From a virus (Duplodnaviria > Caudoviricetes), in the IMG/VR virus record IMGVR_UViG_3300032030_000007, positions 64,001-128,000 of that record: a DNA stretch of 64,000 nucleotides; one strand, 5' to 3'. The notes under the pieces are model-generated. The model was not told the origin of the DNA. It saw only the letters and a list, made by a program, of their open reading frames with translations, and did not search any database. Each line of letters opens with the position of its first letter. Position 1 is the first letter of the stretch. The translations under genes and the position numbers were made by a program. Of the stretch, positions 37,627 to 56,561 are shown piece by piece.

Positions 37627-38346
37627 TTAGTTATTTTTTATTTCAAAATCTTCATATCCTGTTGCTTCTATTGGTCTAAACTTTAAACTTTTATTTAACA
37701 TTAACCAATAAATAATATGTGATATATACATATGATTATGAATGTCTTCAAAACCCATCAATGCTTCATATGCAGTTCTAAAATCTTCAGCATTATTAAA
37801 ACCATATCCACCGCAATTAAATAGATTACTAACTACCCTTTTTTCAATAATATTAGTAACAAAATTTTGATCATCAATCGCTATATAAGACTTATGCTGC
37901 GGGTCAACTATTGGTGTTAATTCTAAAGGATAAACAAAAACAAAATTTCCTTTGCAATTATCTAAATCCATATCACAAGCATTATCTGCATCCTTAATTA
38001 TAATAGGACCTTCTATATCATATCTATTAATTTCATCATATATTGTTTGGGCTTGTGATGATGTTGGATTATTTACTTTTGATATAACAATATCTATATC
38101 TTCATATCGTTCTTCATCAAATTTAATTGCAGATTTAATCTTTCTTGTTATATTATATTCATTATCATGTTGTTTAAGTATAATAAAATGAATTGATCCT
38201 ATTTTTCTTAAATTCATTCTATTAAGAGTTTCAATACAATTCATTATACCAGTATCATTATTATATTGAAATTCTATTGGACACTTATCTTTATATTTTG
38301 GTGATGTATCTAACATCGGCATTATTAATGTATACTTTTCTTTCAT
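37627..38346 (-). CDS. Sugar nucleotidyltransferase-like protein (divergent Gly-rich loop)
   Basis: LIMPM, TSSQAQT, IKDAD, KSY, IIEKRVVS..F.CGGYGF, YISHII. Confidence 0.75.
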   Translation of the reverse strand: MKEKYTLIMPMLDTSPKYKDKCPIEFQYNNDTGIMNCIETLNRMNLRKIGSIHFIILKQHDNEYNITRKIKSAIKFDEERYEDIDIVISKVNNPTSSQAQTIYDEINRYDIEGPIIIKDADNACDMDLDNCKGNFVFVYPLELTPIVDPQHKSYIAIDDQNFVTNIIEKRVVSNLFNCGGYGFNNAEDFRTAYEALMGFEDIHNHMYISHIIYWLMLNKSLKFRPIEATGYEDFEIKNN

Positions 38347-39203
38347 AACTCTACAAATGATGTCAATATATTTAATACAAAATCTCTTACAGATTCTTTC
38401 TTAACATAAGGCAAGATTCTTAATATATTCATAATCTGTAATGTTTCATAATGCTTTTCATAATATTCATTTTTTGAAAAGTATTCATCTATTTTATTAT
38501 CTATATAACTAAATATCATATTAAGTCTAACGATATCATACTTTTTAGTATACATCATTGTTGACCAAAAATATTTAGTATCCTGTCTTAACTTAACAAT
38601 ATCTTGTATAGGTGTTTCAATAAACGAATCTAAATAATCAATAAAATAAAACTTATTTGATGTAAAAAGAATATTTGAAAATGTTAAATCACCATGACAT
38701 ATATTACATGGTAAATCCATTCTTTCTGGTAAGTTATTGAACTTCTTTTCACATGCATTAAGAATATATCTTACATTATCATTATTCTTTGTTAATTTAT
38801 TGTTTTCACAATTCTTTTTAACAGAATTAAACTTATCTATAAATACATTCTTTTCTACAGATTTAATTTCACAAGCATCTAATTCTTTATTAATATATTC
38901 TATAAATGTTTCTATAAAATGATTAATGTCTTCTGGAGATGCATTTTCAAAATAATCAATAAAATTCTTAGCATATACATAATCCATTAATATATATGCT
39001 TCTTTATCGTTTTTTACTAACTCATGAACCTTTGGATTAACTATAGATCCTCCTAAAGCATTATCATTTACTTGTTTATCACCTTGTAAATAAAGTCTAT
39101 TTAAATATTTTGGATCTAATGTAGATTTTTTAACAAAAAGCTTATCATTAATTTCTAAAATATCTATATTACAACCTGAATGACCTTTAATATCAATAGT
39201 CAT
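38343..39203 (-). CDS. APH/choline-kinase-like phosphotransferase (putative sugar kinase)
   Basis: GHSGC, V.K, CHGDLTFSNIL, FIDYLDS, D..KLRQD. Confidence 0.8.
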   Translation of the reverse strand: MTIDIKGHSGCNIDILEINDKLFVKKSTLDPKYLNRLYLQGDKQVNDNALGGSIVNPKVHELVKNDKEAYILMDYVYAKNFIDYFENASPEDINHFIETFIEYINKELDACEIKSVEKNVFIDKFNSVKKNCENNKLTKNNDNVRYILNACEKKFNNLPERMDLPCNICHGDLTFSNILFTSNKFYFIDYLDSFIETPIQDIVKLRQDTKYFWSTMMYTKKYDIVRLNMIFSYIDNKIDEYFSKNEYYEKHYETLQIMNILRILPYVKKESVRDFVLNILTSFVEL

Positions 39204-39320: not shown

Positions 39321-41234
39321 ATGTTAAAAAAATATTTTGCATTATTTGAAACAGAGGCACAATATAGTGAATTTTTAAATTCTGAAGATTTTGTTCAGCC
39401 TAACGTTTCATTAATAAATGAATTAAGAAAACTTTATTTCAATAAGAAAACTGTTAAACAAGGAATATTGATCAACGGTGTAATGCATACTGAAAAGGTA
39501 ATAAGATTAACTGCTGGTGGAACATATGAATTACAAGGTGTTCATGAAGGACAGATTATTGTTGATGCGCAAACTAAACCTGATACATGGACAACAATCA
39601 AATTAAATGGAGCAACCATTTTATCTGATGAAGCTTATGGTATTTTATATGATTGTCCATCATCAAGTAATAAAGGTTATCAAGGTTTGTATGTAACACT
39701 TGAAAAAGATACTCATAACTTCATAGTATGCAATAAAGAAACAATTGTAGAAGGTGATGAAACTTATGCATCAATTGATTCTTGGAAAGACTTAACAGTT
39801 CAGGGTGTTGGTTATCTTGCAGTTTACAATAACATTGGTCATGGTTTAAGAGGTGAAACAATGAATATTGCTGGTCCTCACATTTATATTGATACTGTTC
39901 ATGACGGTGTTCATGGTAAGAATGTTAACATTCTTGATGGTGTATTCTATGTACAAGCTGCTAAAGATGCATTTGGAACAACAGAAAATGGTAAGATCAA
40001 TGTATTTGGTGGAGAATTTGAATTCATTAATGTTACACAAGATCAATTTGATTCTAAGAAAGATGGTTATTATGCAGTTGCTGGTGTTTCAGGAGCAAAT
40101 ATGCACCCAATTGAAGAAATGTATGATGAAGGTACTGTTACTGCATATCCAACAAAAGAAGATTATGAAGCCGGAATCAATGGAGTACAGATTAATCTAG
40201 CAATAGGCACAACTATTAATTCAGGTACATTCTATAATGCTGATGAAAATGAAAATGTTGTATCTTCATCAACTCCTGCTGGGTATCTTACATGGGTATG
40301 GGATGATCCTGCGGAAGTAGTATTTGATTCTCCTCAAGCATATTTAATTAATGCTAATTATAATGTAGTTGAAGTAACAGGAAAAATTACACGTCCTATT
40401 GTTCGTCCTGCTGATGCAATTGCAATAATTGAACCTACATTCTCAAAGAAAGGTAAACTTAATGGAGGATATGACAATAAGTTAGATATTTATCTTAATG
40501 GTGCTGTAATTGTTACCGATGGTCATGCTCCTTCTATTGCTAATCTTCCTGATGTTGGTAGAGTTAAGATTACTGCTGTTAAAGATACAATTAATGCAAT
40601 AATCAATAAAGATATAGCTGAAAATGATTCAGAAGGCTTATATGATCATGATGCAATTAAATCAGAAAACAATGTAACTATAGAAGTAAAAGGTGGTTCT
40701 GTTCTTTATGTAACATCAGGCATTGGTGATGGTGTTGATGGTGGTGAAACAAGATTCATTGATTCTAAAGGTTCATTCGTTGTAACAAAATGCGGTCAAC
40801 GCGGTGTAAAAGGAAATGCAATTGTCATTGGACCAGATGCAATTATCAATGCATCAGTTATAGATAGTTATATAACAGATACTACAGATCCTGAATACAC
40901 AACATTTGATGGTATATTTGTTGCAAAAGGAAATGTAGTTAATCATACTGTAGGACATGGTGTTATAACAGCTGAAGATCCTGAAGCAAAACAAACTGGA
41001 TTTGCTGATGTTTATGGTAGAAACGGTAAGCATTCAAAAGGTATGTTCGGTACAACTGATACAGAACTTAAAGGTGTTGCAATTATAGGCTCACTTGGCG
41101 CAGCAATCAGATTAGATACTGGCAATGCTCATAACTTATATGTAAATACATTATTGGGAGATGCATTAAATCCAGTGTCAACTGTAGAAGAACAATATAA
41201 AGCAGTTCCTTATGAAGGTGACCCAATTGTTTAA
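39321..41234 (+). CDS. Carbohydrate-binding beta-helix (DUF4353-like) protein, probable virion appendage
   Basis: GTYELQG....QIIVDA, I.LNGA.I, HDGVHG, KDAF, HDAIKS, GDGVDG; domain appears duplicated. Confidence 0.65.
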   Translation: MLKKYFALFETEAQYSEFLNSEDFVQPNVSLINELRKLYFNKKTVKQGILINGVMHTEKVIRLTAGGTYELQGVHEGQIIVDAQTKPDTWTTIKLNGATILSDEAYGILYDCPSSSNKGYQGLYVTLEKDTHNFIVCNKETIVEGDETYASIDSWKDLTVQGVGYLAVYNNIGHGLRGETMNIAGPHIYIDTVHDGVHGKNVNILDGVFYVQAAKDAFGTTENGKINVFGGEFEFINVTQDQFDSKKDGYYAVAGVSGANMHPIEEMYDEGTVTAYPTKEDYEAGINGVQINLAIGTTINSGTFYNADENENVVSSSTPAGYLTWVWDDPAEVVFDSPQAYLINANYNVVEVTGKITRPIVRPADAIAIIEPTFSKKGKLNGGYDNKLDIYLNGAVIVTDGHAPSIANLPDVGRVKITAVKDTINAIINKDIAENDSEGLYDHDAIKSENNVTIEVKGGSVLYVTSGIGDGVDGGETRFIDSKGSFVVTKCGQRGVKGNAIVIGPDAIINASVIDSYITDTTDPEYTTFDGIFVAKGNVVNHTVGHGVITAEDPEAKQTGFADVYGRNGKHSKGMFGTTDTELKGVAIIGSLGAAIRLDTGNAHNLYVNTLLGDALNPVSTVEEQYKAVPYEGDPIV

Positions 41235-41261
41235 CAAACATATTTGATTATTATATAAATT

Positions 41262-41288
41262 AAAGGTACCCATATTATGGGTACCTTT
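41262..41288. terminator. Bidirectional terminator
   Basis: aaaggtacccata-t-tatgggtaccttt. Confidence 0.8.
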
Positions 41289-41620
41289 GTTTGATTTGGA
41301 TTCTCAAATAACTTGATTACCATGTCTGCATACAACTGTCTGGTATTATTTTATTGAATCCATGTTTAATGTTTAACCTATTTAAATGTTATTTTATGAA
41401 TATATTTAATTGGTCGAATCTCTAATCTTCATTCTGAAGCCCTCCATCGGTTTGCGGCGACGATTAGGGTTGTTTCGCCTTCACCCATAAGCCCAGTCTC
41501 AAGAAATAATTAAAATCAAATCGGACGATCTCTTGCCATGGTTATGGACTTTATTGATATGGATTTAAAACCAAATATTGGGAAAACTTTCCACTGGATT
41601 TTCTATCTCCTTCGTTAGTT
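41288..41620 (-). ncRNA. Candidate structured non-coding RNA (family not identified)
   Basis: No substantial ORF, locally GC-richer, several potential stems, bounded by a terminator. Confidence 0.4.
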
Positions 41621-41639
41621 TTTTATTTTGATTATTTAT

Positions 41640-42104
41640 TTATGAAATTATATAAGTTTTCACAGTTGTTGTATAACCTTTAGGACCTACATATTTATAT
41701 GTTCCATCTGAAATTTTTGTCATATATTTTGGATTAATAATAACTTTACCGCCATCATTCATAAATCCATCAGGTAAAAATGAATCAGATAACAAATATG
41801 TATCTTTATTATTATAAATATCTTCAATTATTTCTTTAACTTCATTTAATGTTGTAGCATATCTTCCCCATGCGCATAAACCTCCATTATAACTATAATA
41901 AAGTAATATTTCAAAATCATTTTCATGATATTTAGTATCAGTCTTAAATGCGAATTCCCAATTCCATCCTTCACCCAAGTAATATACTTTATAAATAATG
42001 AAATCCTTAAACTCATAAATTGGACCTTTTACACAACCTTCAGCAATTGATTCATTAATCCAATTTGGGTAATTCGATTCTTTAACTTTTGTTATTTTAA
42101 TCAT
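41640..42104 (-). CDS. Hypothetical protein
   Basis: ATG ORF directly behind promoter copy 5. Confidence 0.7.
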   Translation of the reverse strand: MIKITKVKESNYPNWINESIAEGCVKGPIYEFKDFIIYKVYYLGEGWNWEFAFKTDTKYHENDFEILLYYSYNGGLCAWGRYATTLNEVKEIIEDIYNNKDTYLLSDSFLPDGFMNDGGKVIINPKYMTKISDGTYKYVGPKGYTTTVKTYIIS

Positions 42105-42135
42105 ATTTATTATTTGTTTGTTTAATTACAAATAT

Positions 42136-42164
42136 AATATAGTACTTAATTTATAAAATTCAAA
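42136..42164 (-). promoter_or_regulatory. Conserved promoter (copy 5)
   Basis: TTTGAA-N15-ACTATATT. Confidence 0.8.
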
Positions 42165-54029: not shown

Positions 54030-56561
54030 TTACATTTTTCTAAACGATGTCTTTAAGTCAAATCCATGTGAAAGAATTTTTGTCTTATTATCTGGATTAG
54101 CTATAGGCTCCTGTTTTACTGACCATAAGAAGTTTTCAATATTATTATATGTATTGATATCATTAAGTTCATCAAACCAATATTTTAATATATTATTAGA
54201 TAGCTTATTAAAGCATACATTCGTAATATAACGAATATCTGTAATCTTCCATTCATTTATCTTTTCAGCATATACAGTATTATTGAATAACTTATAATCA
54301 TACCAAACATATACTGGAGCATTAAGTTTATTGAATATTTCCTTACATTCAATCTTATATGTATTATCTGATATTTTTCCTTTAAGATTATAAGTAGAAA
54401 GCATCTTCAATTTATTAGGAATATATACTTCCTTGATTTCTTCATTCTTATATAATGAATTCATACAATAAGTACAGATCTTATTTTCTAATTCAGTTGT
54501 ATCTTTAATTGTAATCAATTCATCAATACAAGCTTTAGAATGAATAATATTAACAACCTCAGTACCACAAGCAGAATTAATACAAACTTTAAAATAAGGC
54601 TGAGCATATACATAAGGATAAATTCCAAATACGAACTTATCTATTGAAACATGACTAGGATATCTATAAAGACTATCTCCATAAACTGAACATCTATGCT
54701 TAAGATCAAAAAGATCTTCATAATTCTTTCCAATAATTTCAGGATTTCTCACATATGTAATGTCAGAATCATAATCAATTGTTAAGAAATCATAAAAGTC
54801 TTTATACTTAGATATAATTTTCATAAATTTCTGAATCTATAATATTGTTAGTAAATTTCTTTAAATAATTACGACGTTTCTTTCCAGCTATTTTACGAAT
54901 GCCTTTCATTCTGTCAGATTTAGAATCTCGTTCATTCATAAGATTATGTGTATCTTTAACAAGCCAAATGCCACCCATTAAACTACATCCATGAAACTCA
55001 CGAAGCAATGTATTATGATGTCCTCTTTGACCGTTACGAAGTAGACTCTTTGTAAATTCTTTTTTATATGTCTTGCTCATTTGTGATTATTATATTTCAA
55101 TTGTTCTTCTTTTGTATATATTGGATCAAAAAATTCTTTGCATGGACATCTCATTTTTTCTCCAACAAAATACATATCTTCTGATTTATCGTAATGAAGT
55201 ATCCCAGGCCGTTTTTTATTTATTTCTTCTCCTTTTGAGCATGGGTAATTTGATAATCATGTGGACCCCAAGCTGAACCACGATTTTTACAATTATTACA
55301 ATATGGTTTTCTACTTATTAACATTGTATTTATATTTACAAATTATGATATGTATTATTAATGTCTACAAAATTTACATAAAAACTATTCTCATCTCTTC
55401 GGATTATCTGATATCCCTGTAACAATAATAATGCTTCAACCTTTCCAGGAAGCTCACCACGTTCACCTTCTAAAATGAAACTAACATAACCATCTCTGAT
55501 TGATTCATAAATCTTCTTGTTTATATTTGCAATATATTCAGCATAAAAATCTTTAAACATTGGATCATTCTCCATGTCTGCCATTATCTTCTTAAGAGTC
55601 AATGTACGAGCAGTATCAACAGAAATAATATTAAATTTACTTTTTTCCATTATTCAAAAAGATTATTCAAAAAGATTTACATTACCATAAATAACTACTC
55701 TACTAAAGAACTTCTTTTGTGATGAACATGAAATTACATTGGAAACTCCATTTTCGTTTACAGTAATACGTTTCTTAAGATATATAGGTTTTTTGCCATG
55801 AATACCATAATATTCTTTAGTATCAATAAGTTTAATCTGCCATTTGTTATCTCCCTTCTTATTTACTTCAAGTACTTTAAAAGGGCCATCAGTATAAGAA
55901 TTTTTGTAATGCCAATATGGGTCATCTGAATTACTGTCTCTCCAAAAAGTCTGAAGTTTAATAAATTTACCTTCACAAAGATCCTCAGGATTCATTCCTT
56001 TAAAATTAAATGGATATTTCATCTTTTCGTATATGTTTTAAGTTCATCTATATTATTGAATTTCTTACCCCAGTTTGTCCAAGCACCAATTACTAATTTA
56101 GATGTTTGTGATACCTCTATATATAGCATCTCTGGATCTTTCTTATTGAAACGATACATAATGTTATATGAATAAACATAAGTATCTTTTTTGATTTCAA
56201 TAATGAAACTATATACTGCATTATCAGTAAGATACTTATTAAGTTCAGTATACGTAATCTTTCCAAATGAATTAATCCTTGGTCTCATCTATTATTCGTA
56301 AATTAAAATATCATTAAATCTATCATTAAGTTCAATTTTCTTATCAATACGAGCAATTGCAGTTTCGATTACATTTTCAATATCTGTGTTATCTGTAATG
56401 CAAGGATAAAATACATATTCTTGAGCAACTAAATCAAAAGCATCAGCAGAATATTTATTATTTGTATAATCATAATAAATTTCAATCCGATATCCTTTAT
56501 ACTCAGTAATATCTTCTCCAAATTCTCCTTTATGAAATTTATACCAATTGTAAAGATTCAT
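54030..56561 (-). other. Hypothetical genes (54030-54824, 54808-55080 basic, 55336-55650, 55663-56022, 56019-56288, 56292-56561)
   Basis: Co-oriented ORFs behind promoter copy 7. Confidence 0.65.

Follow-up and report, generated by a model that had tools for sequence, protein, structure and literature searches.

What does the largest gap between genes in a stretch of rumen phage DNA encode? The stretch is the 64,000-nucleotide (nt) segment of IMG/VR record IMGVR_UViG_3300032030_000007 that runs from position 64,001 to 128,000. It is referred to here as the window, and all coordinates without another label are positions in it. The window is part of a T4-like jumbo phage from rumen metagenomes, a placement that draws on a baseplate wedge match. 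The element in question lies in the following gap:

41235-41639, 405 nt: gap between the convergent genes at 39321-41234 (plus strand) and 41640-42104 (minus strand)

An earlier reading of the letters alone, called here the original prediction, proposed that the gap holds a selected, structured phage RNA on the minus strand that ends at a terminator. Comparison with relatives agrees with this proposal, with conservation above a neutral benchmark and compensatory base changes. T4-like jumbo phages from the rumen and gut share the element as a conserved RNA gene, modular and present in a single copy. From 5' to 3', it is composed of a two-hairpin 5' domain, a first minigene (MARDRPI-stop), an H-type pseudoknot (PK1), a GGAGG motif, a second minigene (MKIRDSTN-stop), a 67-nt rod, and an intrinsic terminator. 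The reading favored here, tentatively and at somewhat less than an even chance, is that the RNA has a dual nature: a folded scaffold carrying two translated minigenes, it would act as a ribosome-engaging regulatory RNA.

The gap is the largest in the window by a simple gene call of approximately 100 genes. Its best 100-nt stretch has a guanine plus cytosine (GC) content of 48%, compared to 5-39% in every other gap and 28% in coding DNA. The 60 nt at 41439-41498 reach 58% GC, the top value of the entire 64 kb, where the mean is 27%. These values bear out the predicted GC-rich island in the window's largest gap. Stops occur in all six frames of the gap, and the genes of the window end in TAA (60), TGA (8), or TAG (1). 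A recoded stop, another genetic code, or a hidden open reading frame (ORF) was therefore rejected as the cause of the gap. No repeat of the gap sequence was found elsewhere in the window.

Relatives and conservation of the RNA

Relatives of the element, designated by L numbers, were reached by four routes. The first was the protein cluster of the 154-residue neighbor. The second was a pattern scan of JGI metagenomes, in which L009 and L011 were the only true hits. The murA and GC-rich matches of that scan were discarded as chance, and the murA match stops where the 24-nt search pattern stops. The third route was covariance models over IMG/VR relatives reached through the baseplate protein, and the fourth was contigs encoding homologues of a nearby 286-residue kinase. 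BLAST of the locus against approximately 50,000 phage genomes and against Escherichia coli genomes gave no match, and neither did the 154-residue neighbor against phages and IMG/VR. Exact and degenerate patterns of the element found the G003 contig only or nothing in IMG/VR, and nothing in GTDB genomes.

Thirteen distinct variants come from rumen and gut metagenomes, in at least five gene contexts and with one copy per genome. A 98%-complete relative of 376 kb has exactly one copy of the element, and a multi-copy leader as the role of the 5' domain was rejected on this single copy per genome. The full element is found in nine variants: the window (identical to L005), L001, L002, L011, L009, L060, L062, L071, and L017. 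The 5' domain is found without the GC-rich core in four variants (L004, L053, L064-L067, and L074). PK1 and minigene 2 are both present in the nine and both absent from the four, and the GC island is one unit of pseudoknot, GGAGG, and minigene 2.

The 4-fold degenerate sites of the neighboring kinase gene served as the neutral yardstick. Between the window and L062 these sites are 68% identical, and between the window and L017, 53%. PK1 is 97% identical in the first comparison and 58% in the second, and L017 retains all 9 of its pairs. For minigene 2 (21 nt), identity is 90% and 95%, respectively, and for the stretch composed of AAGUCCA and minigene 1 it is 88% and 76%. Identity drops to 67% (L062) and 40% (L017) in the AT-rich loop between these parts. 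By this measure the element is conserved well above the neutral benchmark.

The pseudoknot, the rod, and other helices

The following minus-strand features make up the core and the 3' part of the RNA:

41456-41486, minus strand: PK1, an H-type pseudoknot that is the GC island, with 9 pairs and nine distinct sequences
41483-41486 with 41467-41470, minus strand: PK1 stem 1, GGGU with ACCC, covarying
41475-41479 with 41456-41460, minus strand: PK1 stem 2, GGCGA with UCGCC, covarying
41297-41363, minus strand: 3' rod, a three-helix hairpin with UGGAUUC/GAAUCCA at the base, AAUAAUA/GUUAUUU in the middle, and ACCA/UGGU at the top
41427-41439, minus strand: small hairpin CUUCA-GAA-UGAAG, which encloses the start codon of minigene 2

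Stem 2 of PK1 begins within the loop of stem 1, which makes it an H-type pseudoknot; the nested model of the core given by RNAalifold was replaced by it. The GGGU/ACCC helix of the original prediction is stem 1, where covariation confirms it. In L017, GGGU/ACCC is replaced by GAGC/GCUC and GGCGA/UCGCC by GCGGA/UCCGC, with four pairs changed on both sides. None of 500 column shuffles reaches the observed values, and slid controls give 0 double changes. The loop sequences of PK1 are highly conserved. A 19-codon frame across the pseudoknot, beginning MGEGETT, was rejected as coding for lack of conservation: a stop interrupts it in L011, a frameshift disrupts it in L002, and in L017 the compensatory RNA changes have replaced its residues altogether.

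The rod has 18 pairs, with 96.8% of cells paired and compensatory changes at 7 pairs contributed by L060, L062, and L064. None of 500 shuffles reaches the observed values, and slid controls give 0-1. The rod is better supported than PK1, and the long imperfect 3' rod that had been predicted is upheld. The rods of L017 and L071 have extra compensated base helices (GGUUCU/AGAACC and GGGUUC/GAACCC) and an insert of approximately 145-155 nt at the tip. The rod is absent from L009, where the terminator directly follows the core.

The tip insert of approximately 145-155 nt lies at L017:1700-1860, L071:4660-4850, and L074:4490-4680. Conserved blocks are common to these three distant relatives, an example being CGACAGUUGAGAAACAGUGG in L071 and L074, and the insert may be a further structured domain.

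Two smaller predicted hairpins fared differently. CUUCA-GAA-UGAAG is kept in relatives, with four pairs and 97% of cells paired, but its changes are one-sided, to G-U only, with no double changes, so that support for it is weak, and it overlaps a start codon. The AUCG/CGAU hairpin is not supported; it has no compensation and is broken in L017 and L062.

Two minigenes within the RNA

The RNA carries two very short ORFs, one on each side of the pseudoknot, and a motif that precedes the second:

41516-41539, minus strand: minigene 1, AUG GCA AGA GAU CGU CCG AUU UGA, MARDRPI-stop, 7 codons
41406-41432, minus strand: minigene 2, AUG AAG AUU AGA GAU UCG ACC AAU UAA, MKIRDSTN-stop, 8 codons
41441-41445, minus strand: GGAGG, Shine-Dalgarno (SD)-like, separated by 10 nt from PK1 on its 5' side and by 8 nt from the minigene 2 start on its 3' side

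Minigene 2 is well supported, by its substitution pattern, as a frame under peptide-level selection that is probably translated. Codons 1-7 encode MKIRDST in all nine variants that have it, and the differences among them are all synonymous (AUU/AUC, AGA/CGA, UCG/UCA/UCU, and ACC/ACU). Variation is limited to the last residue or residues, which are N, K, F, or KY. Only 19% of single-base changes in the MKIRDST stretch would be synonymous, and the chance that five events are all synonymous is approximately 2.5e-4.

Minigene 1 has moderate support as a coding frame from its pattern of change. It is found in 13 of 13 variants as M[A/V]R[D/A][R/S]P-x-stop. In every variant but one, which has 8 codons, the frame is 7 codons long, and L064 (MVRASPK-stop) retains this length despite 6 nt differences. 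Synonymous changes occur (AGA/CGA, GAU/GAC, and CGU/CGA), as do several non-synonymous ones. A longer frame upstream of MARDRPI was rejected because the variants have no start codon in common and read homologous bases in different frames.

The original prediction had called the island ORF-free and non-coding. It has no ORF of at least 30 codons, but it contains these two conserved minigenes, and the 8-codon frame with the signs of peptide-level selection coincides with the best-conserved 3' motif in the GC island. The RNA is therefore probably not purely non-coding.

Relatives carry two more types of minigene upstream of the RNA, M..NKPPP.. and MIKSRD[R/M/Q]P.., and the added ORFs have 8-15 codons. 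At least five substitutions fall in NKPPP, and all are synonymous (chance approximately 9e-4).

Tandem units of approximately 166 nt, repeated at least three times, are found at L065:3000-3660 and also in L064, L066, and L067. Each unit is composed of a MMNTNKPPPNFQ-stop minigene, a MIKSRD[R/Q]PI-stop minigene, and a TTGAAT promoter-like box. Assembly gaps (N runs) lie inside the array, and copy number seems variable between samples. At L009:3150-3270 and L053:1362-1400, a MIKSRD..P.-stop minigene comes right after the stop codon of the upstream gene, with the promoter-like box farther downstream, and the upstream operon may therefore include it as a translated frame.

The minigenes raise the possibility that the peptides themselves, effectors of 7-12 residues, are the products and that RNA structure serves stability or translational control only. 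Peptide-level selection on MKIRDST and NKPPP would fit this, as would a paralogous family of minigenes that shares R-D-x-P/T-x-stop and forms tandem arrays in L064-L067. There are few precedents, however, for products of 7-8 residues that lack an export signal and vary in the last residue, and the structured parts are conserved as much as the ORFs. Moreover, conservation is concentrated at the C-terminal end by the stop codon, which is more typical of arrest peptides. Peptides as the sole products are decidedly unlikely on this balance.

The GGAGG motif is conserved (GGGGG in L017) with a spacer of 7-10 nt. An SD-like 4-mer precedes only 3 of the 78 called genes of the window, below the 7% background. 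This scarcity in the gene starts points to a host that initiates translation without SD sequences, possibly Bacteroidia-like. Bacteroidia ribosomes ignore SD sequences unless bS21 is missing (PMC7797042, PMC9976891), a lead only. The 78 gene starts themselves lie in A/T-rich contexts, such as AAAUAUG.

Architecture of the proposed minus-strand transcript

The RNA is probably transcribed from approximately 41625 to the terminator at 41262, a minus-strand transcript of approximately 370 nt. The minus strand is fixed by the G-U pairs, the direction of the minigenes, and the position of the promoter-like motif. Three further features complete the transcription unit:

42134-42163, minus strand: promoter-like motif, TTGAAT, a spacer of 16-18 nt, and TATATT/TATTAT, upstream of the gene for the 154-residue protein
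41517-41624, minus strand: 5' domain, with hairpin Pa (41596-41610), Pb (41559-41594) with a nested CCAA/UUGG hairpin, and an A-rich single strand with AAGUCCA
41262-41288, minus strand: terminator, intrinsic and bidirectional, shared with the convergent gene for the 637-residue protein; 3' end of the RNA

The promoter-like motif was located as an exact motif and by a sigma-70-like scan, and it is likely the promoter of a unit that ends with the RNA. A promoter copy upstream of the island had been predicted, and the motif exists there; L002 and L062 have the same motif directly before the unit of minigene and RNA. The sequence TATAAATA, tried as a late promoter for the RNA, was uninformative, with 39 occurrences in the AT-rich window.

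A covariance model of the 5' domain, R3, scores 86.9 bits on the window and 78-100 bits in 12 relatives. RNAfold gave the two-hairpin topology independently in 7 of 10 variants, with stems that differ in sequence (GUGGA/UCCAU, GUGAA/UUCAC, and CUGAG/CUCAG). The terminator has a stem of 12-13 bp followed by a T run on both strands. Its position in relatives is occupied by five different stem sequences, and the terminator that had been predicted there holds.

A second small pseudoknot module, module X, lies between the core and the rod in some relatives and is missing from the window. It has the form AAUCCC...GGGAUU, with a loop that pairs downstream (GGAGUU/AACUCC in L001 and GAGGUU/AACCUC in L004, pairings read by eye). 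Its sites are L001:4700-4800, L060:3800-3860, L062:2280-2335, L004:1250-1342, and L074:4380-4490, the last with two copies.

Such modules bear on whether the element could be a purely non-coding, trans-acting structured RNA that binds a protein or serves as a decoy, in which the minigenes are incidental to conserved motifs. Pseudoknots and rod are gained, lost, and duplicated as units (module X twice in L074, rod inserts in L017 and L071). The position at the 3' end of an operon before a terminator and the conserved loops of PK1 fit as well. The synonymous-only pattern of MKIRDST, including the first-position change AGA/CGA, and the like pattern of NKPPP are nevertheless hard to explain by RNA constraint, and minigene 1 keeps its length despite sequence turnover. 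A purely non-coding role is unlikely on these points.

Known RNA families

Rfam 15 was searched at E<=10 over 41000-41900, at the gathering score in the window, and at E<=1 in L017, L062, and L053, and no family was found. What the searches returned was terminator-hairpin noise only (microRNA models, E>=0.02). The ribonuclease P (RNase P) models, bacterial A and B, archaeal, and nuclear, had no match in the locus, the window, or these three relatives. There was likewise no Rfam 15 covariance-model match to 6S RNA, signal recognition particle (SRP) RNA, known riboswitches, or self-cleaving ribozymes. ARAGORN found no tRNA or transfer-messenger RNA (tmRNA) in the whole window. The suggestion of a ribozyme or of a 6S-, SRP-, or RNase P-like RNA in the original prediction thus found no support, even at E<=10 at the locus.

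RNase P was considered further because of a local resemblance. Two segments, AAUAAAGUCCA and GAGACUGGGCUUAU, resemble the CR-I and CR-V elements of RNase P and could form a P4-like helix of 7 bp. An RNase P RNA is defined here by a P4 helix of CR-I (GGAAAGUCC) and CR-V (ACAGAAnnnGGCUUA) that is conserved and covarying. The P4-like pairing AAGUCCA/UGGGCUU shows no double changes; L017 (UGGGAGA) disrupts it, and L062 (UGUACUU) does so in part. The topology is also unfit, with approximately 90 nt of conserved RNA 3' of the supposed 3' strand of P4. Nothing relevant was found in the literature on phage-encoded RNase P RNA.

Mimicry of 23S or 16S rRNA was rejected, the best local matches having an E of 0.6 in a 4.6-kb database, which is chance. 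A tmRNA was rejected on the lack of a tRNA-like domain by ARAGORN and on the state of the core frame, which is interrupted in L011 and shifts in L002.

These results weigh on the view that the gap holds a decayed gene, a mobile remnant, or a diverged known RNA (RNase P, tmRNA, 6S, SRP, a self-cleaving ribozyme, or a group I intron). The P4-like resemblance and the 24-nt pattern that matches murA genes are what speak for it. The helix is uncompensated, however, the Rfam and ARAGORN searches are negative, and the murA and rRNA matches are at chance level. Relatives conserve the element, no open frame is kept through the pseudoknot, and the window has no repeats of it, which is the reverse of the decay or mobility that would have undercut the original prediction. 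This view is largely refuted and very improbable. No RNA family on file matches the combination of features, which is unusual and marks the element as a new RNA family.

Gene contexts and possible transcription attenuation

The RNA is found among changing neighbors. The upstream gene encodes a protein of 154, 126, 113, 95, 68, 65, 61, or 56 residues depending on the variant. The downstream neighbor is a convergent Cthe_2159 gene, a convergent gene for a protein of 226 or 514 residues, or a co-directional kinase operon. In the window, the neighbors are the plus-strand gene for a 637-residue protein with a Cthe_2159 carbohydrate-binding domain (39321-41234) and, on the opposite side, the minus-strand gene for a 154-residue protein (41640-42104).

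The kinase genes of the window (38343-39203) and L002 (L002:3645-4505) are 99% identical, and 97% identical at 4-fold sites. The 5' domain of the RNA, approximately 2 kb from the kinase, is only 80% identical in the same pair. These identities show the locus to be mosaic, an independent cassette in its behavior, and indicate that recent recombination probably swaps the RNA cassette between phage lineages.

The kinase operon invites an explanation in cis. The RNA would be a leader or attenuator of a DNA-modification operon (kinase, nucleotidyltransferase, and glycosyltransferase), translation of the minigenes would decide termination, and the gene for the 637-residue protein would have been inserted later in the window lineage. 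L017 (G003), L071, and L074 have the gene for the 286-residue kinase directly after the RNA and terminator, on the same strand. In the window, the kinase operon (38343-39203, minus strand) also follows, with the inverted gene for the 637-residue protein between. A promoter, short ORFs with stall-prone codons (PPP), structure, and a terminator are the classic layout of an attenuator.

At least eight variants, however, have no co-directional gene after the terminator, and the element is still conserved there. The stops of the minigenes are 40-300 nt from the terminator with the stable rod between, and no antiterminator or alternative pairing was found by inspection or RNAalifold. The kinase gene has its own promoter-like TATAAATA, and L068-L070 and L076 carry the operon without the RNA. 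Attenuation is plausible in L017, L071, and L074, given the operon directly downstream; as an account of the whole family it is unlikely, though it deserves some weight.

Other observations concern the neighborhood rather than the RNA. The gene for the 637-residue Cthe_2159 protein sits inverted between the RNA and the kinase operon in relatives. The only relatives of this protein in phage databases (38% identity) are from the crAss-like phages cr272_1 and cr273_1 from pig feces. One kinase homologue with 58% identity is filed under a Clostridia metagenome-assembled genome, in contrast to the Bacteroidia-like host suggested by the gene starts. The third-largest gap of the window, 255 nt at 55081-55335, has the second-highest gap GC (39% in the best 100 nt). 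It could be another structured RNA; Rfam at the gathering score gave no match there.

A proposed role at the ribosome

On the comparative evidence, the structure and coding of the RNA are well supported, and transcription, translation, arrest, and regulatory output are what we infer from them. If the favored reading of a scaffold with translated minigenes is right, the effect of the RNA would be exerted by way of the ribosome. Minigene 2 would have the pseudoknot, whose 3' end is 24 nt from the AUG, as its translational operator or loading platform. At the ends of the peptides, the conserved motifs (R-D/A-R/S-P/T-x-stop, with NKPPP in relatives) would cause arrest or slow termination. The RNA would thereby retain ribosomes or sense the state of translation, and its own fate or activity during infection would be set in this way.

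Several observations count against this reading. L017 is the sole source of the four compensatory pairs of PK1, and one terminal pair is broken in L071. The minimum free energy of the sequence is no better than that of shuffled sequence on both strands (z of 0.2-0.3), and the case for structure must therefore rest on comparison with relatives. The unit of PK1 and minigene 2 is dispensable in some phages, since four variants lack it. The role of GGAGG as a ribosome-binding site is uncertain because genes of this phage lack SD sequences, and no conserved alternative pairing that hides GGAGG or the AUG was found. No gene for peptidyl-tRNA hydrolase (Pth) or bS21 was found in five related phage records. 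The R-D-R-P and R-D-S-T motifs differ from the proven RAPP and RAGP.

A more specific version of the ribosome-directed role is speculative and has only a slim chance of being right. In it, the phage would use the RNA to target the ribosome, with arrest-type minigenes presented on a pseudoknotted scaffold; these minigenes, of the NKPPP and R-D/A-R/S-P types, could be expanded into tandem arrays. Minigene 2 would be the sole strongly SD-led ORF in a phage otherwise without SD sequences. The RNA might select special ribosomes, such as those without bS21 in Bacteroidia, or gauge the translation capacity of the host (elongation factor P, Pro-tRNA, or release factors). The output might time late functions or counter translation-directed defense.

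Almost all that is known of jumbo phages from the gut and rumen concerns their protein genes. The present locus adds an RNA gene that is conserved, clearly covaries, and belongs to no Rfam family. Its minigenes of 7-8 codons are among the smallest frames with comparative evidence of peptide selection. If they stall ribosomes, or if the pseudoknot gates them, phages would have in this RNA a new means of sensing or manipulating translation in the host. Very short arrest peptides and SD use in SD-independent hosts could then also be studied in it as a compact natural system. Even if its function is modest, the family offers a covariance model, 13 variants, and swappable modules for probing and for searches of metatranscriptomes.

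Comparison with known systems

tmRNA resembles the element in having several pseudoknots and a short internal frame that ends in a stop. Unlike tmRNA, the element has no tRNA-like domain, its ORFs start with AUG, and its peptides lack an ALAA-type end.

The dual-function small RNAs SgrS/SgrT and RNAIII/hld encode peptides of 26-43 residues and base-pair with mRNAs. The element is like them in being a structured, probably regulatory RNA that also encodes a small peptide. It differs in size, with frames of 7-8 codons compared to their 26-43 residues.

ORFs of 3-8 codons trap peptidyl-tRNA, and lambda bar is the phage precedent, according to PMC2490762 and its reference 20. Lambda bar and the element are alike in having phage ORFs of a few codons in a transcribed, otherwise non-coding stretch, and the 7 and 8 codons found here fall in the size range of toxic minigenes (approximately 2-8 codons). 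The effect of bar depends on the last codon and its tRNA, whereas here the peptide is conserved and the last codon varies. The minigenes here are also embedded in a conserved folded scaffold, and the five related phage records have no Pth gene.

Leader-peptide attenuators and arrest peptides (trp, mgtA/mgtL, SecM with RAGP, and ApdA/ApdP with RAPP) share with the element short ORFs, stall-prone ends, RNA structure, and an intrinsic terminator (PMC10951233, PMC7897499). The stall-prone ends here are PPP and an Arg-x-x-Pro next to the stop codon. As in attenuators, short candidate leader ORFs, the conserved minigenes, lie upstream of a predicted intrinsic terminator with a covarying stem. The co-directional gene and mutually exclusive folds of attenuators are not found: the next gene in the window is convergent, the kinase follows only in L017, L071, and L074, and most variants have no regulated gene after the terminator. 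The minigenes are far shorter than known arrest peptides. Their ends, R-D-R-P-x-stop, R-A-S-P-K-stop, R-D-S-P-I-F-stop, and R-D-S-T-x-stop, are not RAPP or RAGP, and only the spacing of Arg and Pro is similar (PMC10951233).

The T4 gene 32 operator is a pseudoknot of approximately 28 nt that nucleates repressor binding upstream of the ribosome-binding site (PMC535899). The element differs from it in its 24-nt spacer, GCAAACCGAUGGAGGGCUUCAGA, which has no UUAAA repeats, and in its ORF, which has 8 codons and is not a gene for a single-stranded DNA-binding protein; there is no sequence likeness. The two are alike in belonging to T4-type phages and in placing a compact H-type pseudoknot (approximately 28 nt in T4 and 31 nt here) a few tens of nt 5' of a translation start. 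Here that pseudoknot is PK1, with its four compensatory pairs, 24 nt before the AUG of minigene 2.

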